Assembly (NCBI GenBank): GCA_949841325.1
Contig: CATKZK010000004.1
Coordinates: 1 to 63,179 of the forward strand
Length of the DNA stretch: 63,179 nt
Source: an uncultured Bacilli bacterium
Lineage (GTDB): Bacteria > Bacillota_I > Bacilli_A > RF39 > UBA660
Direction: 5' to 3'
The stretch's first letter is position 1, and every line of letters starts with the position of its first letter. The notes under the pieces were generated by a model that was not told the DNA's origin, searched no databases, and saw only the letters and a program-made list of their open reading frames with translations. Shown piece after piece: positions 2,338 through 25,176 of the stretch. A program made the position numbers and the translations under genes.

Positions 2338-2380
2338 ACGTCCTTCCTTAGGGCAGCAGATTGATTATTAGTTGAACTTT
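2325..2380 (+). repeat. Repeat copy E with trailer (AAAAAGTTGTTGAACGTCCTTCCTTAGGGCAGCAGATTGATTATTAGTTGAAC)
   Basis: 28/34 identical to copy G (reverse complement of 24075-24108); overlaps the TGA stop of the upstream gene. Confidence 0.8.
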
Positions 2381-2464
2381 TTCGGCTATTAGCAAACAGA
2401 AAATTTAGAATTTGACATATCGATATAAGTATAGTAAACTTATACCAGTTGGAGGTAATAGACT

Positions 2465-2557
2465 ATGAAAAATATAATTGTAAATAATAACTTATTATTA
2501 GCCTTATTATTAAACCGATTATGTAGTAATGGGTCTATTTTGAGTGCTATTAAATAA
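2465..2557 (+). CDS. Leu-rich leader peptide MKNIIVNNNLLLALLLNRLCSNGSILSAIK (30 aa)
   Basis: RBS GGAGGT about 8 nt upstream; TTA TTA TTA GCC TTA TTA TTA AAC CGA TTA; directly upstream of LeuRS; absent from the ORF track. Confidence 0.8.
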   Translation: MKNIIVNNNLLLALLLNRLCSNGSILSAIK

Positions 2558-2614
2558 AAAAATAAAGCAATTCAATAGAGTCAATACTACATTTAAGTAT
2601 TGGCTCTATTTTTT
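2523..2614 (+). promoter_or_regulatory. Transcription attenuator (antiterminator 2523-2548 with 2566-2590; terminator 2574-2614)
   Basis: 15-bp stem AATAGAGTCAATACT/AGTATTGGCTCTATT (one G-U pair) plus U tract; its 5' arm can alternatively pair with GTAGTAATGGGTCTATTTTGAGTGCT inside the leader ORF. Confidence 0.75.
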
Positions 2615-2638
2615 ATTAAAAAGAAAGGAATGATTAAA

Positions 2639-5050
2639 ATGTATAATTTTAGAGAAATTGAAAAGAAATGGCAAGGTAAATGGTATAACGAAAAGAGTTT
2701 TAAAGCAATAGATTTTCATCCAACCAAACCAAAATATTATGTTCTATATGAGTTCTATAATATTAGTGGTAATCTACATATGGGGCATTTGAAAGGAACA
2801 GTCCCTGCAGATGCATTAGCTAGAATGAAAAGACTTCAAGGATATAATGTATTGTTTCCAATAGGTGGGGATTCTTTTGGATTACCTGCAGAAAATGCAG
2901 CTATAAAAACTGGTATCAATCCTAAAGATTTTGTTGATAATGGAATGAAAAATGCAATAGAGCAATCTAGAAAAATTGGACTTTCATTTGATTATGATAG
3001 AAGTTTTTGTACTAGTGATGAAGATTATTATAAATGGACACAATGGATTTTTCTTCAACTTTTGAAAGAAGGTAAAGCATATAAGGAGAAAGGTGTTGTA
3101 AACTATTGTCCAAATTGTAAGACAGTACTTTCGAATGAAGATAGTCAAGGTGGAGAATGTGATAGATGTCATGGTCAAGTCGTACAAGAAGAAAGATGGG
3201 TTTGGTTTCTAAAAATGAAAGAATACTCTGAAAAACTACTTGGAAATATTGAGAGAATTGATATGAATGAAAATCTAAAAGAACTTCAAAGAAATTGGAT
3301 AGGAAAATCAGAAGGTATGCAAGTGTCTTTTGATATAGTAGATGAAAATAATAATGTAATTGATAATGCTGGTATATTTACTACTTGTGTAGAAACTATT
3401 TATGGTATTACTTTTCTTGTAATGGCTCCAGAGCATAATTTTATTGAAGAACACAAAAATAAAATTCTAAATTATGATGAAGTATGTGAATATAAAAAAG
3501 AAACATCATATAGAAGTGAACTGGATAGAATGGCTAATCAAAAGGAAAAAACAGGTTGCCTTGTTCAAGGAATCTATGCAATAAATCCTGTTAATAATAA
3601 AAAAGTTCCTATATATCTAGCTGACTTTGTTCTTTCAGGATACGGTACAGGTATAGTTATGGCTGTTCCTACTCATGATCAAAGAGATTATGAATTTGCA
3701 AAAAAATTTAATATACCAATGATTCAAGTAATTGAAGGAAATACTGAAAATCAAGCAGTTGAAAAATACGAATATATAAAAGATAATAGTAAAATGTTAA
3801 ATTCTGAAGAATTTACTGGAATAAATGTGAAAGACGCTAAAGAAAAAATTGCAGATAAACTTATTGAAATGGGTGTTGGTAAAAAGCAAATAAATTATAA
3901 AATGCAAGATTGGTCATTTAATAGGCAAAGATATTGGGGCGAACCTTTTCCAGTCGTTTTCTGTGATAAATGTGGTATAGTCCCGGTTCCAGAAAATGAA
4001 CTTCCAATTACTTTGCCTAAAACAGAAGATTATATGCCAAATGAAAAGGGAAATTCTCCACTTTCTAAAATAGAAGATTGGGTAAATTGTAAATGTCCTA
4101 AATGTGGAAAAAAGGCAAAAAGAGAAACTGATACTATGCCAAACTGGGCAGGTTCTTCTTGGTACTGGCTTAGATATTGTGATCCTCATAATAATGAATC
4201 ACTTGCTGATATAGAAAAACTAAAATATTGGGGAAGTGTTGATTGTTATACAGGAGGTACTGAGCATATAACTCGACATGTTCTATATGCATTCTTTTGG
4301 CAAAATTTTTTATATGAAATAGGTGCAGTTCCTACAAGAGATCCATTTAAAAGAAAAATGGGAAGTGGATTGATTCTTGATGATACTGGAAAGAAAATGA
4401 GTAAGAGTTCTACAAATGGTGTATCACCAATAGAAGTAATTGATAAATATGGTAGTGATGTTGCAAGACTTCATGTTCACTTTTTGGCGGCATATGAAGA
4501 TAATACTCCTTGGACATATGATGGAATAAATGGCATAACTAATTTTATAGATAAAGTTTGGAATTTGCAAAATATGATTAAGGGTACTGAAATCTCTACT
4601 GAACATATTTATGAAACCAATAATTTGATAAAGAAAGTAACAGAAGATATAGAAAATCTTAAACTTAATACTTGCATATCAGCTTTTATGACTTTTATAA
4701 AAAAAATTAAAGAAGATAAATTTATAAGTAAAGAAGAACTAAAAACATTCCTAGTATTATTAAATCCTTTGGCTCCCCATATTACAAGTGAAATGTATGA
4801 AATAATTTTTAAAGAGAATATTATAGATGTAGAGTGGCCTAAATTTGATGAGAATTATTTAATTCGTGATGAAATTAATCTTCCTATTCAGATAAATGGA
4901 AAAATGAAAAAAACACTGTCTGTTAGGAAAGATGCTACCCAAGATGAAGTTATAAATTTCATAAAGAATACATATCCAGAATTAATATGTGGTGAAATTA
5001 AAAAAATTATTTACATTCAAGGTAAAATAATCAATATAATGTGTAAATAG
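2639..5050 (+). CDS. leuS: Leucyl-tRNA synthetase, divergent
   Basis: HMGH and KMSKS class I motifs; GDSFGLPAEN; CP1 editing motif GYGTGIVMAVPTHDQRD; Zn knuckles; C-terminal PIQINGK; start moved to ATG 2639 behind RBS AGAAAGGA. Confidence 0.92.
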   Translation: MYNFREIEKKWQGKWYNEKSFKAIDFHPTKPKYYVLYEFYNISGNLHMGHLKGTVPADALARMKRLQGYNVLFPIGGDSFGLPAENAAIKTGINPKDFVDNGMKNAIEQSRKIGLSFDYDRSFCTSDEDYYKWTQWIFLQLLKEGKAYKEKGVVNYCPNCKTVLSNEDSQGGECDRCHGQVVQEERWVWFLKMKEYSEKLLGNIERIDMNENLKELQRNWIGKSEGMQVSFDIVDENNNVIDNAGIFTTCVETIYGITFLVMAPEHNFIEEHKNKILNYDEVCEYKKETSYRSELDRMANQKEKTGCLVQGIYAINPVNNKKVPIYLADFVLSGYGTGIVMAVPTHDQRDYEFAKKFNIPMIQVIEGNTENQAVEKYEYIKDNSKMLNSEEFTGINVKDAKEKIADKLIEMGVGKKQINYKMQDWSFNRQRYWGEPFPVVFCDKCGIVPVPENELPITLPKTEDYMPNEKGNSPLSKIEDWVNCKCPKCGKKAKRETDTMPNWAGSSWYWLRYCDPHNNESLADIEKLKYWGSVDCYTGGTEHITRHVLYAFFWQNFLYEIGAVPTRDPFKRKMGSGLILDDTGKKMSKSSTNGVSPIEVIDKYGSDVARLHVHFLAAYEDNTPWTYDGINGITNFIDKVWNLQNMIKGTEISTEHIYETNNLIKKVTEDIENLKLNTCISAFMTFIKKIKEDKFISKEELKTFLVLLNPLAPHITSEMYEIIFKENIIDVEWPKFDENYLIRDEINLPIQINGKMKKTLSVRKDATQDEVINFIKNTYPELICGEIKKIIYIQGKIINIMCK

Positions 5051-5108
5051 TATTAAAAATTGTTTCGATTCTTAGAAATAGTGTTATAATTATTTTAATA
5101 TTCATTGG

Positions 5109-5204
5109 TAAAGTTGTAGATTACTTCTCCAATGGCACTAGATTGATTGTTACTCGAACCTTTCAGTGAGAGTGAAAGCGACTTGATAAAAACACGTTTT
5201 TATG
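5109..5204 (+). repeat. Repeat copy F with extended trailer
   Basis: TAAAGTTGTAGATTACTTCTCCAATGGCACTA-GATTGAT..ACTCGAAC; 5179-5204 is 22/26 identical to the tRNA-Cys terminator hairpin (reverse complement of 25037-25062) at nearly the same spacing from the CCA-like end. Confidence 0.75.
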
Positions 5205-5288
5205 ATATCACGAATTTTGTAAAGGGCACTTGCATAACAAAAAAAGGGAATACTTAACATTGAAAAGTTGAGTACTCACCAAATTGGT

Positions 5289-5328
5289 ATGCACTTAATC
5301 TTGTTTTGATTGAGTGCATTTTCTTTTT
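5289..5328 (+). terminator. Intrinsic terminator
   Basis: ATGCACTTAATC/GATTGAGTGCAT stem followed by TTTCTTTTT. Confidence 0.7.
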
Positions 5329-5413
5329 ATAATTCATTATTATTTAATAATAGAAGAATAGGTAGAATGGCAATAACGATTAAAGTAACGATTAGAGAAT
5401 CTTTCATAGTCAT
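5327..5413 (-). CDS. Putative 28-aa hydrophobic peptide MTMKDSLIVTLIVIAILPILLLLNNNEL
   Basis: ATG 7 nt after the stop of the 5421..6353 gene; one TM-like stretch; weak RBS. Confidence 0.35.
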   Translation of the reverse strand: MTMKDSLIVTLIVIAILPILLLLNNNEL

Positions 5414-5420
5414 TTTTCAA

Positions 5421-6353
5421 TTACTTTCTTCTTTTTTCAGTTGTATAATCTGAAAATTTACTTATTTTTGCTGATGATAGTTTGGATAATAAATCTTTTT
5501 GTAAAATTTCTATTTCTTTTTTTGTTATTTCTTGATTTTCTAAATAATATAAATTTTTAACAAAATCATATATACTTATTTTATTTTTCTTTTGTAAAAG
5601 TGATTTTGCAAAAACAAATCTTCCAACTTGGGATATTAAATCATAAAAATTCTTTTCTATTCCTTTTTTTTCAAAGAAATTGTATATAGTATCAAAAAAT
5701 ACATCCCATTGACTATTGGAAATTTCTAATGGTGGTAGATTATACACAATAGCATAAGCATCTATTTCTCTTACTACTTGTACCATAGTTTCCTCTTTAT
5801 CTAGATAATTTGTATCATTTTCAATAAGTGTTAAGTTTGGATAGTCCTTATTTATCTGTCTTTGTTGTTTTTCTAAAGCTTCTCTATATTTTTTTTCTTT
5901 TTCCGTTTCAACATAAGTTTCTTCTTTCTTTATGAAGGATTCATATTTTTCGCTATAGAAATCTTTTCCTTTTGCTTTTCCAATACCTTCTTGCAATATT
6001 TTATCTACGTCCTTTTCTTGTTCGATTTCAAAAATATTAGAATTGGATTTATAATGATTTGAAATTAAACTTTTTGCTTCAATAATAAAATCTTTAGTTA
6101 AAGTTGCAATAGTTCCAACACCAGTTATACTTGAACCGATGATTAATATAGTCGGATTTTTAAAAATTAAAAATCCAATATATGATAAAATTAGTGGACC
6201 AATAAATAAAACAACTTTCTTTAATCTACTTCTTAAATCTTTTTTCATAGCATTATCAAAGTTGTTTATAAAATCTTCCATTTGAACTAATTGAATTTCT
6301 GCATTTAAATTTTTAATTTTCTTTTTATCGTTTTTTTTATTCATATAAATCAC
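5421..6353 (-). CDS. Hypothetical membrane protein (two N-terminal TM helices)
   Basis: 310-aa ORF with two hydrophobic segments; no family recognised. Confidence 0.6.
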   Translation of the reverse strand: MIYMNKKNDKKKIKNLNAEIQLVQMEDFINNFDNAMKKDLRSRLKKVVLFIGPLILSYIGFLIFKNPTILIIGSSITGVGTIATLTKDFIIEAKSLISNHYKSNSNIFEIEQEKDVDKILQEGIGKAKGKDFYSEKYESFIKKEETYVETEKEKKYREALEKQQRQINKDYPNLTLIENDTNYLDKEETMVQVVREIDAYAIVYNLPPLEISNSQWDVFFDTIYNFFEKKGIEKNFYDLISQVGRFVFAKSLLQKKNKISIYDFVKNLYYLENQEITKKEIEILQKDLLSKLSSAKISKFSDYTTEKRRK

Positions 6354-8932: not shown

Positions 8933-11320
8933 ATGGACTTTTTGAAAACGTTAGAAGAGAATGCACTTTTACTTGTAAGTCAGGATATGAAAGAACCTAT
9001 TCTTCATTATATCCATGAAGAACATTTATTAGTAAACATTAAGTTTATTTCTTTTCAAGAATTAAAGAAGGGACTTCTTTTTGATTATACAAATGAAACT
9101 ATATATGAAGTGATGAAGTATTATCATGCGTCTTATGGTGTAGCAAAAAATTGGATTGAAAATCTTTATTATATCGAAGATAAAGTCTATGATAATGAAA
9201 AACTTTCCTTTTTAAAAGAAATAAAAAATTATCTTCAAGAAAAAGAGTTATTAAAAAAAGATCTTCTTTTTCCTTCTTTTTTAAAAAGTAGAAGTAAATT
9301 ATATCTTTATGGTTTTCATTCTTTTGATCCTTTCCAAAAGTACCTATTGAGTTTAGCTCATTCTTTAGTTACAGTAGAGCCTTTAGAGATGAAATCATTC
9401 TCTCATGAACATGATGTTCATTTGTTTTCAACACTTGAAAAGGAAGTCGTTTATGTTGCCGATAAAATTGCTACTCTTCTAATAGAGGGAATTCCTTTAA
9501 ATAAAATATATCTAGTTCAATATCCAGAGGAATATACATTCACGATTCATCGTATTTTTAAAGCCTATGGTATACCCTTTAGTGGTAATCATCATCCTAC
9601 CCTTTATCATACAGCAATCGGTACATATTTTTTAAATCATTTAGAGGAAAATATGGATTCTCTTCTATATAAAATAAAAAAGCATTTCAAGATAAGTGAG
9701 AATCCTTATAACGAAAAAGTCTATAATATCCTTGTTAATCTTGTAAATACTTATTATTGGTGTGATTCCTTTCTTGAAGTTCGTGAAATGTTGGAACAAG
9801 AAATGCGTCAGAAGAAATTGAATATATCTCATTCTATACACGAATTAAAAAAGACTTCCTTTTTAAATCATGTCTTTTCATCTGATGAATATATTTTCCT
9901 ATTAGGATTTAATTTGGATGAAGTGCCTAAAATGAAAAGAGATGAAGACTATCTGTCAGATGATGAAAAAACGAACATTATGGAAACAAGTGTTGCCTAT
10001 AATAAGCGAGTAAAGGAATCTTGGATAAGTGCTTTAAAAAATACGGCAAATGTTACCATTACTTTAAAAGAAAAAAGTTCCTTTTCTTCTTACTTTCCCA
10101 GTTTATTAATAGAACAGGATTTTCTTCATTTAAAGAAATTACCATTTGAAATGGCTTCCCACTCTCATAAAATAAACAGGGAATGGTATGCGAAAAGACT
10201 TGATCGCTTTTTAAAATTTAATGAGTATAGTCATGAACTTGAAATGAGTAACCAATTATATAAGATTCCTTATCGAACTTATCAAAATAAATTTACAGGA
10301 ATTGATGAGAATAGGATTCAAACTTTCTTAAATGGACAGATTGCATTTTCTTATACTAACATTTCAACGTATTATGAGTGCCCCTTTAAATTTTATTTAA
10401 AGTACGTTTTAAGAATTGATTCTTTCGAACAGACAATCTATACCTTCATAGGAACCTTATTTCATCACTGTTTAGAAAGATGTTTAGATTCTCATCTTTC
10501 TGTAGATGAGGTTTATGATGCCTATGTAAAAGAACAAATGACTGGAAAACAGGAAACTTATGAAGAACAATTCTTCTTAGCTTTTTTAAAAAAAGAAATA
10601 AAGTTTATTATTGAAAGTATTCGGCTACAATACACACATTCATCTCATACAGAATCATGGCATGAAAAGGAAATTACCATACCTATGAAGAGAAAAATTG
10701 AAACTACTTTAAAAGGATATGTTGATAATGTATTAGTTTTAAACAATAAAGTACTTATTATCGATTATAAAACAGGACATATAGAAATGGATCCTGCATT
10801 ATTTCCTTTTGGTATTGGCATTCAATTGCCTATTTACTTGTATTTACTTACCTGTATTGATAAAAATACGGAAGTAGTAGGCATGTACCTTCAACATATT
10901 TTAGATTTGAATGAGGAGTATCAACCCAAAAAAGATCTATTAGAAGAAAAACGCAAGAAACTTCGATTAGATGGAATTACCTTTGCCAATATGGAAGATA
11001 TCAAACTTTTTGATGAAACTTATGAGGCTTCTGAAGTGATTAAGTCTTTAGGTGTCACTAAGAAGGGAGAATTTAAGAAGAGTAAAAAAGTCATTGCTCT
11101 TTCTGAAAGAGAAAACCTTAGTGAAATGATGGAGAACTTAATTATACAGTGTATTGATCGTGTATCTTCTGGAGACTTTTCTATTGCACCTATAAAAATT
11201 GAAAAAAAAGCCGATGGATGTGCCTATTGCAAATTTAAAGATATTTGTTATGTCAGAGAAAAAGATTTTCATCGTGAAGAACTTGTAGAGGATAGAAAAG
11301 AAGGTGATGATTTTGAGTAA
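8933..11320 (+). CDS. addB: AddB/RexB-like PD-(D/E)xK nuclease subunit
   Basis: YYECPFKFY, IIDYKTG, QLPIY and C-terminal CAYCKFKDIC Fe-S cysteines; overlaps addA; start set by RBS GAGGAGG. Confidence 0.8.
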   Translation: MDFLKTLEENALLLVSQDMKEPILHYIHEEHLLVNIKFISFQELKKGLLFDYTNETIYEVMKYYHASYGVAKNWIENLYYIEDKVYDNEKLSFLKEIKNYLQEKELLKKDLLFPSFLKSRSKLYLYGFHSFDPFQKYLLSLAHSLVTVEPLEMKSFSHEHDVHLFSTLEKEVVYVADKIATLLIEGIPLNKIYLVQYPEEYTFTIHRIFKAYGIPFSGNHHPTLYHTAIGTYFLNHLEENMDSLLYKIKKHFKISENPYNEKVYNILVNLVNTYYWCDSFLEVREMLEQEMRQKKLNISHSIHELKKTSFLNHVFSSDEYIFLLGFNLDEVPKMKRDEDYLSDDEKTNIMETSVAYNKRVKESWISALKNTANVTITLKEKSSFSSYFPSLLIEQDFLHLKKLPFEMASHSHKINREWYAKRLDRFLKFNEYSHELEMSNQLYKIPYRTYQNKFTGIDENRIQTFLNGQIAFSYTNISTYYECPFKFYLKYVLRIDSFEQTIYTFIGTLFHHCLERCLDSHLSVDEVYDAYVKEQMTGKQETYEEQFFLAFLKKEIKFIIESIRLQYTHSSHTESWHEKEITIPMKRKIETTLKGYVDNVLVLNNKVLIIDYKTGHIEMDPALFPFGIGIQLPIYLYLLTCIDKNTEVVGMYLQHILDLNEEYQPKKDLLEEKRKKLRLDGITFANMEDIKLFDETYEASEVIKSLGVTKKGEFKKSKKVIALSERENLSEMMENLIIQCIDRVSSGDFSIAPIKIEKKADGCAYCKFKDICYVREKDFHREELVEDRKEGDDFE

Positions 11321-14300
11321 TTTAACTTTAGAACAACAACTCGCAGTAGATAAAAAAGATACGAATATTATTGTTTCAGCAGGTGCAGGATCTGGAAAGA
11401 CGACGGTTTTAAAAACTCGTGTACTACGTGAATTAAAGGAAGGAATTTCTATTTCTAATCTAATTCTTTTGACTTTCACTAATAATGCAGCAGCAGAAAT
11501 GAAGAAACGTATTAGAGATGCTATGATGGAGGAAAAAGAGTTAAAAGAGGAAGTTGAAAAAATTGATTCTGCATATATTACAACTTTTGATTCTTTTGCG
11601 CAAAGTATTGTAAAAAAATATCATTATTTACTACATATTGATAAAAACTTTTCTATTATTGATTCTTCTCTTTTACAAATGGAAATGAAAAGAATATTGG
11701 ATGAAATATTTGAAGAATATTATGCTAAAAATGATGAAGATTTTAATGCACTTATTCTGCATTTCTGTATTAAAGATGATAAAGCGATTCGGAAAAGTAT
11801 TGTTGAAATCATGCATCTTTTAAACAATCGAATTGAAAAAGAAAAGTATCTCATGCATTACCTTGAAAATGCTTACCATGAATCATTTATTCAAGAAACT
11901 TTTGCGATATATGAAGAGTTATTGTTTGAAAAAAGAGATGAAATTATCACTTTACTAGATGAGTTAAATGAGGAAACAAATGATTCAGAAAAAGCGGTTA
12001 AAAACGATTTAATGTCGGCTAATCTTAAAGAAGCTACGACCTATGATGAATTAAGAGATTCTCTTGACTTTTCTTTAGCTTCAAATCGAAATCATTTATA
12101 TAGTGAAGAAGGAGCGAAAATAAAGGATGCGATAGGAAAAGAACTAACATCTTTAAAAAAGCAGATGCTCGATGATAAAAAAACAATCATCCATCATTAT
12201 AAGGAAACAGAAAAATATGCTAAAGTATTAGTTGATATTTTACTTATTTTTGATAAACGTTTAATGGAATTTAAAAGGGGGTATAATGCCTATACTTTTA
12301 ATGATATTGCTTTTTTTGCAATTGAATTAGTTCGTGATTATCCTAATGTTAGACAAGAATTAAAAGAGAATACTTTTGAAATTATGATTGATGAATATCA
12401 AGATACGAGTGATATTCAAGAAACGTTTATCTCATATATTGAAAATAATAATGTCTATATGGTAGGAGATATTAAACAATCCATTTATCGATTCCGAAAT
12501 GCTAATCCATATTTATTTAAAAAGAAATATGATGCATATAAAGAGAATAAAGGTGGATTTAAAATTGATTTAAATAAAAACTTCCGTTCTAGAGAAGATG
12601 TAGTTGCTAATATTAATTTGATTTTTAATCGAATCATGAAAGATGAGATTGGTGGAGCAAAGTATAAGGAAGAGCACCAAATGATTTTTGGAAATATATC
12701 GTATTCTTCTGTAAAAGAGAAACAAGACTATGACATGGAAGTTCTTCATTATACAAATGAAACGGAGCATTTTAATGAATTAGAAATTGAAGCATTTGCA
12801 ATCGCTAAAGATATAGAAAAGCGAGTAAAAGATGAGCAAGTTACTTACTTTAACGAAGGAAGTATGCAGTTGCGTCCAACAGAATATCGGGATTTTGCTA
12901 TTTTGATTGATCGAAGTAGTCATTTTGAATTATTTAAAAAAATTCTAGAGAGTAAGGGAATTCCCGTTACGATTGAAAAAGACATTAGTATAAAAGAAGA
13001 AGATGAACTTTATCTATTAAAGAATATGGTACTTTTACTTATTAAAATAAAAGAAGAAAAATATGATAATGAATTTAAGCATGCCTATCTTTCTATTGCA
13101 AGGTCTTATCTTATGTGTATGAGTGATGAAGAACTCTTTTCTATTATCACAGAAAAGACATGGAAAGAAACAGAACTCTTTAGAAAAATTTTAGAGGTTA
13201 TTCCTTATTTAGATTCATCTTCAAATAGAGAGATATTATATCGCTTATTGGAAGAGTTTGATATTTTTAATAAGATGATTTTAGTGGGGGATGTTGAGGA
13301 GAGAACAAGCAAACTTGAGTATTTTCTTCAAAGTATGGATCAATTAAACGATTTTGGTTTGGACATTTATGCTTTAAAAGATTATTTTGATGTGGTTTTA
13401 AATGGTGATTATGAAATGAAAATGTCTTCATTAAAATCATCAGGAAATGCCGTGTTAATTACAACGATTCATAAGTCAAAAGGTCTTGAATATCCTTATG
13501 TATATTTACCAGATTTAAATCATAGTTTTCAAAATAATGGCTCAAAAAATTTAATTCAATATGCGCCTTCTTTAGGATTTTTAATTCCTTTTTATGATAA
13601 TGGAAAGGGCGATACTTATTTGAAAAGTGTCTTTAAAGCTGAAGAGAAAAAAGAAGAACTTTCAGAAAAAATTCGCTTATTTTACGTGGCTTTAACGCGT
13701 GCAAAAGAAAAAATAATTCTGCTTACTTCTTTTGATAAAGAAAAAGAGTATGAATTGAGGAAAGCAAAGTCAATGAATGATTTATTGGGTGTTTTGAAGC
13801 ATGATTTAAATCCTTTTATGAGAGAATTAGAGTTAGATACACTTTCTTTATCAAAAGACTATCAGATGGTAAAGGCGACAAATTACCAAGAGTTGATTCA
13901 AAAAACGCCTGATCATTACCCTGTTACAGAAATTCAAGTAGAAGAGAAACTAGTAGATCATTTTCATTTTTCTAAACCTCTCTCAAAGCGAATGGATAAG
14001 GAATTAAAGTCGCGATTAGACTTTGGAACAATGATGCATACTGTTTTTGAAATTGTCGATTTTAAAAATCCAAATGTTTCAGACTTACCAATTGGTAATG
14101 ACTTGAAAGAATGTGTTCAAAAATTTTTAAGTCATGAGGAAGTGAAAGAAATAAAGAAGGCTACTATTAGAAAAGAATATGAAATTTATTATACGAGTGA
14201 AAAAGGAATCTTTCATGGGTTCATTGATTTGTTACTCGAATATGAAGATCATTTTGATATCATTGATTATAAGTTATCGAATGTGAATAGTAGTGAATAT

Positions 14301-14408
14301 GAGGCTCAGTTAAATGGATATAAAGAGTATATTGAAAAACAGTTTCATAAGCCAGTTCATCTTTATTTGTATTCGATAAAAAAAGATTTTTTTAAGAAAA
14401 TTTGTTAA
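11304..14408 (+). CDS. addA: AddA/RexA-like UvrD helicase-nuclease
   Basis: AGAGSGKT, DEYQD, VGDIKQSIYRFR, TIHKSKGLE, YVALTRA and C-terminal IIDYK nuclease. Confidence 0.88.
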   Translation: MMILSNLTLEQQLAVDKKDTNIIVSAGAGSGKTTVLKTRVLRELKEGISISNLILLTFTNNAAAEMKKRIRDAMMEEKELKEEVEKIDSAYITTFDSFAQSIVKKYHYLLHIDKNFSIIDSSLLQMEMKRILDEIFEEYYAKNDEDFNALILHFCIKDDKAIRKSIVEIMHLLNNRIEKEKYLMHYLENAYHESFIQETFAIYEELLFEKRDEIITLLDELNEETNDSEKAVKNDLMSANLKEATTYDELRDSLDFSLASNRNHLYSEEGAKIKDAIGKELTSLKKQMLDDKKTIIHHYKETEKYAKVLVDILLIFDKRLMEFKRGYNAYTFNDIAFFAIELVRDYPNVRQELKENTFEIMIDEYQDTSDIQETFISYIENNNVYMVGDIKQSIYRFRNANPYLFKKKYDAYKENKGGFKIDLNKNFRSREDVVANINLIFNRIMKDEIGGAKYKEEHQMIFGNISYSSVKEKQDYDMEVLHYTNETEHFNELEIEAFAIAKDIEKRVKDEQVTYFNEGSMQLRPTEYRDFAILIDRSSHFELFKKILESKGIPVTIEKDISIKEEDELYLLKNMVLLLIKIKEEKYDNEFKHAYLSIARSYLMCMSDEELFSIITEKTWKETELFRKILEVIPYLDSSSNREILYRLLEEFDIFNKMILVGDVEERTSKLEYFLQSMDQLNDFGLDIYALKDYFDVVLNGDYEMKMSSLKSSGNAVLITTIHKSKGLEYPYVYLPDLNHSFQNNGSKNLIQYAPSLGFLIPFYDNGKGDTYLKSVFKAEEKKEELSEKIRLFYVALTRAKEKIILLTSFDKEKEYELRKAKSMNDLLGVLKHDLNPFMRELELDTLSLSKDYQMVKATNYQELIQKTPDHYPVTEIQVEEKLVDHFHFSKPLSKRMDKELKSRLDFGTMMHTVFEIVDFKNPNVSDLPIGNDLKECVQKFLSHEEVKEIKKATIRKEYEIYYTSEKGIFHGFIDLLLEYEDHFDIIDYKLSNVNSSEYEAQLNGYKEYIEKQFHKPVHLYLYSIKKDFFKKIC

Positions 14409-14460
14409 AAAGGAGTAATTCTTCTTTTTTTTGTGTATATAACTTGTAGGAGGTGATATT

Positions 14461-15849
14461 TTGAACGATCTTTTTAGCATCCAAAATAAACGATTAGATG
14501 ATACGTAAATAGAGGCTATTCAAAGTGATAGCTTATCCACTTTAGTGGTAGCAGGAGCAGGATCTGGAAAAACATTCACCATAATGGGAAAAGTTAAATA
14601 TCTGATTGAGAAAGAAGGCTATAAGGAAGATGAAATTTTATGTATTTCTTTTACAAATGAAACAGTTAAAAATTTATATGAAAAACTTTTGGAGCTTGGA
14701 TATGAAATTGAAGTAAAAACTTTTCATAAATTAGGCTTGAAGTTTTTAGAAGGGGAAAACTATACGATTGTAGAAGATTCTTATTTAGGTTACATTATAG
14801 ATGAATATGTTCGCTCATTTATTCAATATGACAAGAAGAGAGTACGTCTTTTTAAAAATATTTTATATACAGAAAAATCATTTTCAAATCTTTTAAAAAG
14901 CCAAGAGTATAAGAATTTAAAGAAAACAATGATGAATTTTATTAAGTTGGCTAAGAGTAATCACTTCACTATTCGAGATATTTATGATGTTTATAAAAGA
15001 AGCTGGTTTAATGAAAAATCACTACTAAAGAATATTTTAGATGTTTATATGATTTATGAAAGAGAGTTAGAATCCTCTTTGAAAATTGACTTTGATGATA
15101 TGATTACAAAGGCAATAGAAAACGTTAGAATTACTGATATGCGATATAAATATATTATTATAGATGAGTTTCAGGATACTTCGATGATTCGCTATGAACT
15201 GATTCAAGAAATTGTAAAATATACCAATTCGCGTGTTTTTGTTGTTGGTGATGATTGGCAATCTATTTATCGATTTAGTGGATGTAATTTAAAACTCTTT
15301 CTTCATTTTAATCAGTATTTTAAAGAGAGTAAATATTTCTATTTAAAGTATACTTATCGAAACAGTAACGAGTTGATTCATGTATCATCTCAGTTTATTA
15401 TGCAAAATAGAAAACAATTAAAAAAAAGTATTCTTTCACAGAAGAATTTAACAAAACCCATTGTTATTCTTTTTTCTTATACAGTTTCTGAAATACTTTC
15501 CCTTATTCAAGGGGAAGAAATCTTAATATTAGGCCGAAATAATGCTGATATTGCTTCTGTTGATTGGGAAAACAAGCTTACCATTCATCGATCTAAAGGA
15601 TTAGAGGAAAAAAATGTTATTTTAGTTAATTCAGATTCGATTCCCAATGTCATGCAGCAAGAAAGAATCATGCGTCATGTTTTAAAAGACAACGATTATA
15701 TTTTATACGAAGAGGAAAGAAGACTTTTTTATGTCGCATTGACAAGAACAAAAGAACGAATCTTTATTCAGGTTAATAGAAAGATAAGTCCTTTTGTCAA
15801 AGAATTGATGCGAGATTATAGGCAATATGTTACTGTATTAAAAAAGTAG
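14461..15849 (+). pseudogene. UvrD/HelD-like superfamily 1 helicase with in-frame TAA at 14506-14508
   Basis: RBS AGGAGGTG plus TTG 14461 in frame with ORF 14545; LDDT*IEAI where the Q-motif Gln is expected; AGAGSGKT, DEFQD, YVALTR. Confidence 0.75.
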
Positions 15850-24924: not shown

Positions 24925-25036
24925 TTCTTCATTGAATTAAATGTCGATCTAATTAATTTGGGTAGACATTCAATATTGCAAAACTGAATGTTCCCTTTTT
25001 TATTTTATGCAAGTTTCCTTGACGTATTCATAATAA

Positions 25037-25102
25037 CATAAAAACGACTTTTTGACAAGTCGTTTGGTATTGTTACTCGAAAGTTCGAGTTTCCTATCAA
25101 TC
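25037..25102 (-). terminator. tRNA-Cys trailer: ACTCGAA-CT-TTCGAGT palindrome plus AAACGACTT/AAGTCGTTT terminator
   Basis: Two inverted repeats directly 3' of the tRNA CCA; homologous to repeats D and F. Confidence 0.7.
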
Positions 25103-25176
25103 TGGAGGGGCCTAACGGATTTGAACCGATGATCAGGGAGTTGCAGTCCCACGCCTTACCACTTGGCTAAAGCCCC
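25103..25176 (-). tRNA. trnC: tRNA-Cys (GCA)
   Basis: 74 nt, GGGGCTT acceptor stem, anticodon loop CTGCAAC, T-loop GGTTCAAATCC, U73 discriminator, encoded CCA. Confidence 0.97.

Follow-up and report, generated by a model that had tools for sequence, protein, structure and literature searches.

A stretch of 63,179 nt from an uncultured Bacilli bacterium (contig CATKZK010000004.1 of assembly GCA_949841325.1, referred to here as the window) carries at 2639-5050 a gene for a bacterial-type leucyl-tRNA synthetase (LeuRS) in which several otherwise near-invariant residues are replaced. A preliminary description of this DNA had proposed an accessory, inhibitor-resistant paralog on a mobile cassette. 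Our analysis points instead, with a probability of about 0.8, to a divergent but vertically inherited LeuRS with a housekeeping role in a large clade of uncultured gut bacteria, expressed under the control of a leucine attenuator. The gene, leuS, is a chromosomal gene of an uncultured low-GC (guanine plus cytosine) mouse-gut Firmicute and most probably the only leuS of that genome. All positions are window coordinates, and residue numbers prefixed with Ec or given within substitutions (e.g. Y43N) follow E. coli LeuRS.

The gene occupies the single long frame of the open reading frame (ORF) list (2600-5050, + strand). The ATG at 2639, preceded by AAAGGAA, is the conserved start, and 803 aa are encoded by 2639-5047. 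The protein scored 842.1 bits against the NCBI leuS equivalog model TIGR00396 (cut-off 548.4, E = 4.6e-253), with a match extending over aa 2-802 of 803. Pfam assigned the class-I core (tRNA-synt_1), the LeuRS editing domain PF13603 (E = 1e-56), and Anticodon_1. The closest solved structures were those of LeuRS from T. thermophilus (E = 1e-194), N. gonorrhoeae, and E. coli. An AlphaFold2 model (pLDDT 79, pTM 0.69), which informs on the fold only and has low pLDDT in the active-site loops, reached TM-scores of 0.80-0.85 to the same three enzymes. Domain order is that of canonical LeuRS (TIGR00396; E. coli 4AQ7/4ARC, T. thermophilus 1H3N, N. gonorrhoeae 7NU*), with a Rossmann core, a four-Cys ZN knuckle, the CP1 editing domain, and anticodon-binding and C-terminal domains in common. 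Both class I signatures are in place (HMGH, aa 47-50; KMSKS, aa 586-590). The insertion of the leucine-specific (LS) domain is absent (...GLILDDTGKKMSKS...), as it is from B. subtilis and M. mobile LeuRS.

Motifs were compared between 80 clade sequences and 147 others, i.e. 146 representatives of other LeuRS clusters plus E. coli LeuRS (NC_000913.3), which provides the numbering. The 80 are the best (67-97% identity) of 217 stretches encoding relatives of the window protein. The strings quoted in the preliminary description (YEFYNISGNLHMGH, FTTCVET, HDQRD, GGTEHITRHVLYAFF, and KMSKS) are all found in the translation of 2639-5047. Replaced residues lie around the entrance of the synthetic site, in the support of the HIGH loop, and in the T-rich editing loop; relative to canonical LeuRS the Tyr43 gate, Pro44, the aromatic residue at 79, Asn104, Arg249, Arg418, Ser423, and Arg542 are missing. 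Asn stands for Tyr43 in 79 of the 80 clade sequences and in none of the 147 others. Ec P44 is replaced by I, V, or T in all 80 (T in two), with I or V in one of the 147. Gly is found at position 79 throughout the clade (80/80) and never outside (0/147; these have W, F, Y, or L). At position 104, 79 clade members have Gly, which is outside the six commonest residues of that column in the other sequences (Asn in 104/147). Position 542 is Phe in 80/80 clade sequences and Arg in 147/147 others. Three further changes, R249C, S423N, and E558D, were not encountered among the 147; D251E, L538V, and R418Q occurred in seven, five, and three of them, respectively. Within the clade, Gln is found at 418 in 65 of 80 sequences and K or T in the remainder.

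The patterns GGD[SA]FG[LM]P, TTC[IVPC]ET, and GG.EHITRHVLY[AS]FF were matched by all 80 clade sequences, and EF[YFPC]N[IVT]SG preceding HMGH by 79, the exception having F for N. The preliminary description had spoken of rewritten motifs, and for the clade-specific changes Y43N, P44I/V, R249C, R542F, and others this holds; M40E (49/147), M536R (22/147), F493W (69/147), and W177D (Glu or Asp at Ec W177 in 121/147), however, are frequent natural variants outside the clade, and a missing LS domain is common among LeuRS as well. Conversely, W79G had been missed there, and N104G, R418Q, S423N, and E558D also extend the original list. In total, 197 columns show at least 85% conservation among the LeuRS outside the clade. 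In clade members the residue is retained at 167 of these and replaced by a different, fixed one at 21. Measured as deviations from the LeuRS consensus, the clade median is 32 of 198 well-conserved columns and that of the other clusters is 10; only 2 of the 147 reach 32, and the clade is therefore unusually but not uniquely divergent.

HMGH or HLGH was found in 81/81 sequences, KMSKS in 78/81, and KLSKS in the remaining three. D80, S496, Y499, E532, H533, H537, and Y540 are kept in all or nearly all members, as are the ZN-domain residues E169 and R178, W223, and in the editing site T247, T248, T252, L327, Y330, M336, V338, D342, R344, and D345; T247, T248, T252, D342, R344, and D345 are present in 80/80. 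Among the canonical leucine-site residues, M/E40, F/L41, D80, F/W493, S496, Y499, H533, and H537 are present, and only Y43 differs (Asn in 79/80). The alignment against the 147 thus bears out the earlier remark that HMGH, KMSKS, and the editing Asp are retained while several near-invariant residues are replaced. As judged from these conservation patterns, the divergence would spare the chemistry.

The distribution of this LeuRS type was analyzed on a set in which each GTDB species is represented once; a stretch encoding a relative of the window LeuRS is present in at least 217 species-level gut genomes. The best 80 of the 217 (67-97% identity) come from gut metagenome-assembled genomes (MAGs) of mouse, rabbit, ruminants, chicken, and humans; one group is labelled Bacilli, Mollicutes, or Tenericutes, and the second Clostridia, Christensenella, Catabacter, or Onthoplasma. 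When 1.84 billion cluster representatives were searched exhaustively, the close relatives fell into one 50%-identity cluster (71% identity, 1411 bits), followed outside the clade by a LeuRS with 46% identity and 850 bits; to any LeuRS outside its own clade the window protein is at most 46% identical. In a neighbor-joining (NJ) tree the clade was monophyletic and divided into two subclades matching the taxon labels; its stem measured 0.29 substitutions per site, compared with 0.019 for the median internal branch and 0.22 for the depth within the clade. The preliminary description had itself named fixation of the substitutions in orthologs across the lineage as one part of what would count against its proposal, and such fixation is what we found. 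An auxiliary or accessory paralog on a mobile cassette is hard to reconcile with an ortholog in at least 217 species-level genomes and variant motifs fixed in the 80 examined.

Further evidence concerns how the gene evolves. The GC content of leuS tracks that of its flanks from 24% to 53% across clade genomes, and the ratio of nonsynonymous to synonymous substitution rates (dN/dS) is 0.03-0.17; clade leuS is under strong purifying selection. The species representative closest to the window leuS (L003) has 95.5% nucleotide identity and a synonymous divergence (dS) of 0.07. Two relatives (L051 and L056) have standard tRNA-Leu(CAA) genes adjoining leuS, with A73, an encoded CCA, and a long variable arm.

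The genomic context of leuS is chromosomal. In the window, its surroundings encode a D-Ala-D-Ala carboxypeptidase, AddB/AddA, TypA, NrdD, and RNase R, as expected of an ordinary chromosome. The identical LeuRS protein was recovered in identical context on nine independently assembled mouse-gut contigs, and the sequence is present in many mouse-gut runs. Gene order around leuS is conserved over many species of the Clostridia-labelled subclade; in a subset of these leuS adjoins rplJ-rplL, whose divergence parallels that of LeuRS. No copy of this LeuRS type was found in plasmid records (best match 46.5% identity), in phage records (best match 48.1%), or among IMG/VR viral contigs. Neither an integrase nor a transposase gene lies in the 3.6 kb or so preceding the window leuS, or downstream as far as AddAB; the nearest one encodes an IS110-family transposase and was called about 3.8 kb upstream of leuS on a single longer contig from the same strain. 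The idea of a mobile resistance copy is not supported, in view of host-matched GC, purifying selection, rplJ-rplL synteny in one subclade, and absence from the plasmid, phage, and viral collections.

The region between promoter and leuS has, by its sequence and comparative pairing, the predicted architecture of a classical leucine leader-peptide attenuator (Table 1). The same leader peptide and RNA precede leuS in 14 related loci (L001-L011, L013, L016, and L075; 15 with the window), nucleotide homology to related loci starts near the promoter-like site (2395-2460), and nucleotide conservation of the leader is far above that of leuS. Over the 15 sequences, 98.2% of cells are paired in the putative antiterminator, with one compensatory G-C to U-A change, and 99.1% in the terminator, with one compensatory and several wobble-compatible changes. 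All single changes in both structures are pair-compatible, and slid registers pair at only 24-61%. The two structures share the arm 2574-2590 and are mutually exclusive. The C-terminal half of the leader peptide is invariant at the nucleotide level because the antiterminator arm (2523-2539) lies there. A 5′ anti-antiterminator hairpin predicted in the window was discarded (85.6% paired, no better than shuffles). Neither a T-box nor any other Rfam family matched the leader at the gathering threshold or at E ≤ 1, and of 80 loci, 78 lack the T-box core motif upstream of leuS, as does the window. A transcriptome-labelled library has contigs that span leader and leuS, although it may contain DNA.

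Comparable arrangements, a short ORF with cognate codons followed by antiterminator and terminator before the synthetase gene, are pheM-pheST of E. coli and the predicted leuS attenuators of Streptomyces (PMC1262725). Unlike these, the attenuator of the window sits in a Firmicutes lineage. Firmicutes synthetase genes use T-boxes, and none was known to use classical attenuation (PMC1262725); classical leader-peptide attenuation seems undescribed for a Firmicutes synthetase gene. The inducible leader noted in the preliminary description is real insofar as a Leu-rich ORF of 30 codons and a terminator are present, but it would sense leucyl-tRNA supply, as for a housekeeping LeuRS. Since the attenuator would tie expression to the supply of Leu-tRNALeu, it fits the working, housekeeping LeuRS of the cell.

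Table 1. Positions of leuS, its conserved and altered motifs, the leader, and nearby elements in the window
Feature	Positions	Strand	Evidence
Copy of dispersed short repeat, upstream (named E in the preliminary description)	2352-2381	+	Repeat comparison; branching, higher-depth node in metagenome assemblies
Promoter-like site 5′ of leader, TTGACA, 17-nt spacer, TAAACT	2412-2440	+	Consensus scan, 10/12 matches
Putative leader-peptide ORF, MKNIIVNNNLLLALLLNRLCSNGSILSAIK, 30 codons, ribosome-binding site GGAGG at 2451-2455	2465-2557	+	Sequence; JGI gene caller (30-aa gene)
Candidate regulatory Leu codon run, 7 TTA in 10 codons	2492-2521	+	Sequence; columns almost invariant in 15 aligned leaders
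Putative antiterminator 5′ arm, pairs with 2574-2590	2523-2539	+	15 pairs, comparative pairing
Predicted intrinsic terminator, 15-bp stem, 7-nt loop, T run (hairpin 2574-2610)	2574-2616	+	Terminator scan; minimum free energy fold, z = -3.4
leuS, bacterial-type LeuRS, 803 aa, without LS domain	2639-5050	+	TIGR00396, Pfam, structure matches
YEFYNISGNLHMGH, HIGH motif retained; Ec P42/Y43/P44 to Y/N/I	2747-2788 (aa 37)	+	Translation, alignment
GGDSFGLP, Ec W79 to G; leucine amino-group anchor D80 retained	2864-2887	+	Alignment
Gly102 at Ec N104 (AgnB2 A102 position)	2942-2944	+	Alignment
FTTCVET, T-rich editing loop; T247/T248/T252 retained, R249C, P250V, D251E	3377-3397 (aa 247)	+	Alignment
HDQRD, editing residues D342, R344, D345 retained	3674-3688 (aa 346)	+	Alignment
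KMQDWSFNRQRYWG, hinge and tRNA-acceptor guide motif (Ec 416-RLRDWGVSRQRYWG-429), R418Q and S423N	3899-3940	+	Alignment
GGTEHITRHVLYAFF, E532/H533/H537/Y540 retained, L538V and R542F	4253-4297 (aa 539)	+	Alignment
KMSKS catalytic loop, Met retained (not KQSKS of AgnB2)	4394-4408 (aa 586)	+	Translation, alignment
Copy of dispersed short repeat, downstream (named F in the preliminary description), within longer copy at about 5105-5290	5134-5163	+	Repeat comparison
Terminator-like hairpin, about 240 nt past leuS stop codon	5289-5319	+	Terminator scan

The window LeuRS belongs to one deep monophyletic lineage comprising a very low-GC, Bacilli-labelled and a Clostridia/Christensenella-labelled subclade. 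A burst of change on the clade stem probably hit near-invariant residues, the resulting states being frozen later by purifying selection. It would have affected the leucine gate and its support (Y43N, P44I/V, W79G, and N104G), the tRNA-acceptor guide (R418Q and S423N), the T-rich editing loop (R249C and D251E), and positions 542 (R542F) and 558 (E558D). Since the parts that carry the chemistry are intact (HMGH, KMSKS, D80, pocket floor, and editing site), the enzyme is expected to activate leucine, charge tRNALeu, and proofread in CP1. Its substrate would be tRNALeu of the ordinary kind (A73, long variable arm), the lid that covers the leucine pocket would be remodelled, and the aromatic residue found at position 42 in most members may replace Tyr43 in stacking. 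When Leu-tRNALeu is scarce, ribosomes would stall in the TTA run of the leader; 2523-2539 could then pair with 2574-2590, the terminator at 2574-2610 would be blocked, and leuS would be read through. As the cause of the stem changes we favour drift and compensation in a reduced-genome lineage over inhibitor-driven selection.

Several observations weigh against this reading. Firstly, in the window's own low-GC subclade the genes flanking leuS vary from genome to genome, and the block shared by the window and L003 extends only over 2401-5416, i.e. from the promoter to the 3′ region. Secondly, a large serine recombinase of one family adjoins leuS in four relatives (L003, L004, L007, and L013; positions 7260-9143 in L007); L003 (258-3143) has a truncated form of it and then a Mob_Pre relaxase ending at the leuS promoter, both lying directly upstream. 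Thirdly, the nearest canonical LeuRS clade (P0122 type, 46% identity) is likewise found on gut MAG contigs, with about 27% GC. Fourthly, Tyr43 of E. coli LeuRS is a gate that rotates to stack on the bound leucine, and its loss lowers kcat about 50-fold (PMC13454842); given this cost, normal catalysis by the clade enzymes is something we infer. Finally, of the five determinants of resistance in AgnB2, four (P44, N104, R418, and the LS domain) coincide with changes in the clade. The second point suggests that insertions recur around leuS in the low-GC subclade, making its neighbourhood a hot spot. Recombinase and Mob genes are best regarded as elements inserted beside a core gene because leuS is universal in the clade with host-matched GC, and because the window context lacks an integrase or transposase within the range given above.

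The last point leads to the alternative that fares best, which accepts leuS as a housekeeping gene and possibly the only copy, and differs on why the changes became fixed. The replacements would be adaptive, with the remodelled HIGH-loop support and acceptor guide lowering sensitivity to a leucyl-adenylate mimic of the TM84/agrocin type or to another LeuRS inhibitor of the gut. AgnB2, the TM84-resistant self-immunity LeuRS of Agrobacterium radiobacter K84 (5AH5; PMC5059758), provides the model. Its resistance determinants are T42 (second Pro of PYPSG), A102 (Ec N104), where loss of the Asn removes a hydrogen bond to the loop preceding HIGH, Q573 (KQSKS), Q413 (Ec R418), and the missing LS domain (PMC5059758). 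The window LeuRS resembles AgnB2 in that the second Pro of PYPSG is replaced, Ec N104 is a small residue, Gln is found at Ec R418, and the LS domain is lacking. At the P44 and N104 positions AgnB2 has T and A, compared with I/V/T and G in the clade. That the replacements cluster at otherwise invariant sites and were then frozen, on a lineage with a long stem branch, would also suit selection by an inhibitor.

Several points speak against an adaptive origin. The clade lacks the KMSKS-to-KQSKS change that is the restrictive key determinant in AgnB2 (KMSKS or KLSKS throughout), and AgnB2 retains Tyr43, which the clade does not. In A. tumefaciens LeuRS, P45T and N105A, singly or combined, confer no resistance, and H. 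pylori LeuRS, which has Gln at Ec 418 and lacks the LS domain, remains sensitive to TM84, with inhibition at 34 nM (PMC5059758), so that these two features are not specific to resistance. In E. coli LeuRS, Arg418 contacts the discriminator A73 and steers the CCA end into the synthetic site, and R418Q keeps far more activity than R418E or R418D (PMC3664829). Absence of the LS domain is common in Firmicutes-type LeuRS, and neither an inhibitor nor a producer is known from this habitat. AgnB2 is not specifically related to the window protein either (E = 8e-137 compared with 1e-194 for T. thermophilus; fold rank 35) and is no closer than other LeuRS in sequence or structure.

The preliminary description had also pointed to rewritten amino-acid-pocket and editing motifs and to benzoxaboroles as acting at the CP1 site. 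Contacts to the benzoxaborole-AMP adduct are made by the Thr pair in the T-rich loop, by Leu and Tyr in the AMP-binding loop, and by one Met, one Arg, and two Asp (PMC5038265, PMC3747510), and all of these contacts (Ec T247, T248, T252, L327, Y330, M336, D342, R344, and D345) are retained in clade LeuRS. The only altered residue near the benzoxaborole site is R249, located about 4 Å from the extra phenyl group of one compound. The pocket floor, the leucine amino-group anchor, and the known editing residues are unchanged as well (PMC5038265). The residue pattern would argue against insensitivity to benzoxaboroles and appears ambiguous for compounds of the TM84 type. We therefore consider an adaptive origin of the replacements unlikely, and the stronger claim, that a natural LeuRS inhibitor reshaped the ancestral enzyme and left the whole clade intrinsically insensitive to leucyl-adenylate-mimic antibiotics, distinctly unlikely.

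Very improbable, in our assessment, is an accessory second-copy LeuRS, i.e. a resistance gene or specialised paralog that a mobile cassette would have brought into a genome already holding a canonical leuS. It would account for the variable flanks in the low-GC subclade, for the limited block shared with L003, for the serine recombinase and Mob genes beside leuS in some relatives, and for short repeats on both sides of the gene. The wide occurrence described above, with tree-like divergence, host-matched GC, rplJ-rplL synteny in many genomes, and dN/dS typical of an essential gene, argues for a core gene instead, as do the lack of plasmid, phage, and viral copies and of nearby integrases or transposases in the window. 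Regulation would follow leucyl-tRNA supply rather than a drug-type signal. Known resistance synthetases also differ in their setting. AgnB2 is a plasmid-borne second copy beside an antibiotic gene cluster, in contrast to the chromosomal, lineage-wide LeuRS type of the window. MupA and MupB, the mobile mupirocin-resistant isoleucyl-tRNA synthetases, likewise are class Ia enzymes diverging from the usual type, but the window LeuRS type is not found on plasmids and its distribution is not patchy; the MupA/MupB models matched the window protein only at the level of weak paralogs (82-97 bits against a cut-off of 1900).

The repeats call for separate comment, as the preliminary description had placed leuS between them. 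The pair itself (2352-2381 and 5134-5163) is real, with 30 nt at 80% identity, non-random, and flanking leuS, but it belongs to a dispersed family and does not bound the conserved block. Further copies are located at 1413-1470 and, on the - strand, at 24960-25105 directly after tRNA-Cys (25103-25176, - strand); the upstream copy extends over 2338-2400, and 5140-5250 matches 24991-25103 at 75% identity. One copy, in a different genomic context, sits after the 3′ end of another tRNA, and copies form branching, higher-depth nodes in metagenome assemblies. The repeats were rejected as cassette ends, since the family is dispersed genome-wide and since the block shared with L003, beginning at 2401, includes the right copy but not the left. 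The dispersed repeat contains a hairpin and a T run and could be a terminator/promoter module or a recombination site.

A LeuRS-derived enzyme with altered amino-acid specificity or without editing, as in some Mycoplasma LeuRS, is hardly credible: Y43, P44, and W79 near the amino-acid site and two residues of the T-rich loop are indeed replaced, but D80, S496, Y499, H533, H537, and E532 leave pocket floor and anchor unchanged, the Tyr43 gate of E. coli is a mechanistic switch and not a selectivity filter (PMC13454842), CP1 is full-length with T247, T248, T252, D342, R344, and D345 retained, the leader would sense Leu codons, the leuS equivalog model is passed, and every genome needs a LeuRS. 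Like the Mycoplasma LeuRS in which CP1 editing is degenerate or missing (M. mobile, 3ZIU), the window LeuRS comes from a low-GC, probably reduced genome; unlike them, it has a complete CP1 with its catalytic residues intact. As in the window LeuRS, a short peptide is reported to take the place of the LS domain in M. mobile LeuRS (PMC3643597).

Several neighbouring genes were considered as markers of horizontal transfer between the subclades. In four loci (L040, L064, L071, and L073) a cysteinyl-tRNA synthetase (CysRS) is encoded near leuS; the CysRS proteins are only 32-38% identical where LeuRS is 69-75% identical, with one pair at 61%. The pattern points to two CysRS types or to transfer of cysS between clade members. 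CysRS was dropped as a marker, its identity being erratic within one subclade (36% versus 61% at equal LeuRS distance), and ParC/GyrA and P-type ATPase neighbours are paralog-prone. No synteny link was found to the nearest canonical LeuRS clade. In five loci of this P0122 type (L088-L092, Clostridia-labelled MAGs), leuS encodes EFPYPSG and TTRPDT and lies in a DAGK-HD-leuS-GGDEF/EAL arrangement with no leader.

A few additional observations concern the surroundings of leuS in the window. Searches for known RNAs in the 3′ region (5040-5430) returned chance-level matches only. Upstream, an 81-nt direct repeat with 78% identity (360-440 and 1164-1244) precedes the hypothetical genes at 496-1140 and 1619/1813-2337 and may be a shared promoter or regulatory module. 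The hypothetical gene at 1619-2337, upstream of leuS, is split by a T6 instead of a T7 tract (about 1666-1672). It is intact (239 aa) on two metagenome contigs (L084 and L087) and split (174 aa called) in the window and four others; the difference is a homopolymer length polymorphism and possibly phase-variable. Downstream, in the region 11304-15849, the AddA homolog (1034 aa) scored 421 bits, well below the addA_Gpos cut-off of 708, and is followed by a separate 434-aa UvrD/helicase IV-like gene.

For annotation, the case illustrates that divergent motifs in an essential enzyme are not by themselves evidence of a mobile resistance paralog. With the leucine attenuator, the classical attenuation of synthetase genes would be extended to a lineage of Firmicutes, a phylum in which T-boxes prevail. 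Antibiotics that target LeuRS include benzoxaboroles, agrocin 84/TM84, and Leu-AMP analogues, and the enzyme is a textbook case of gated substrate binding and proofreading. The clade enzymes could show whether sensitivity to LeuRS-directed drugs varies among gut commensals. As a natural, conserved family without Tyr43, Pro44, Arg418, and Arg542 but with intact catalytic residues, they also provide a ready-made test of how essential those residues are.

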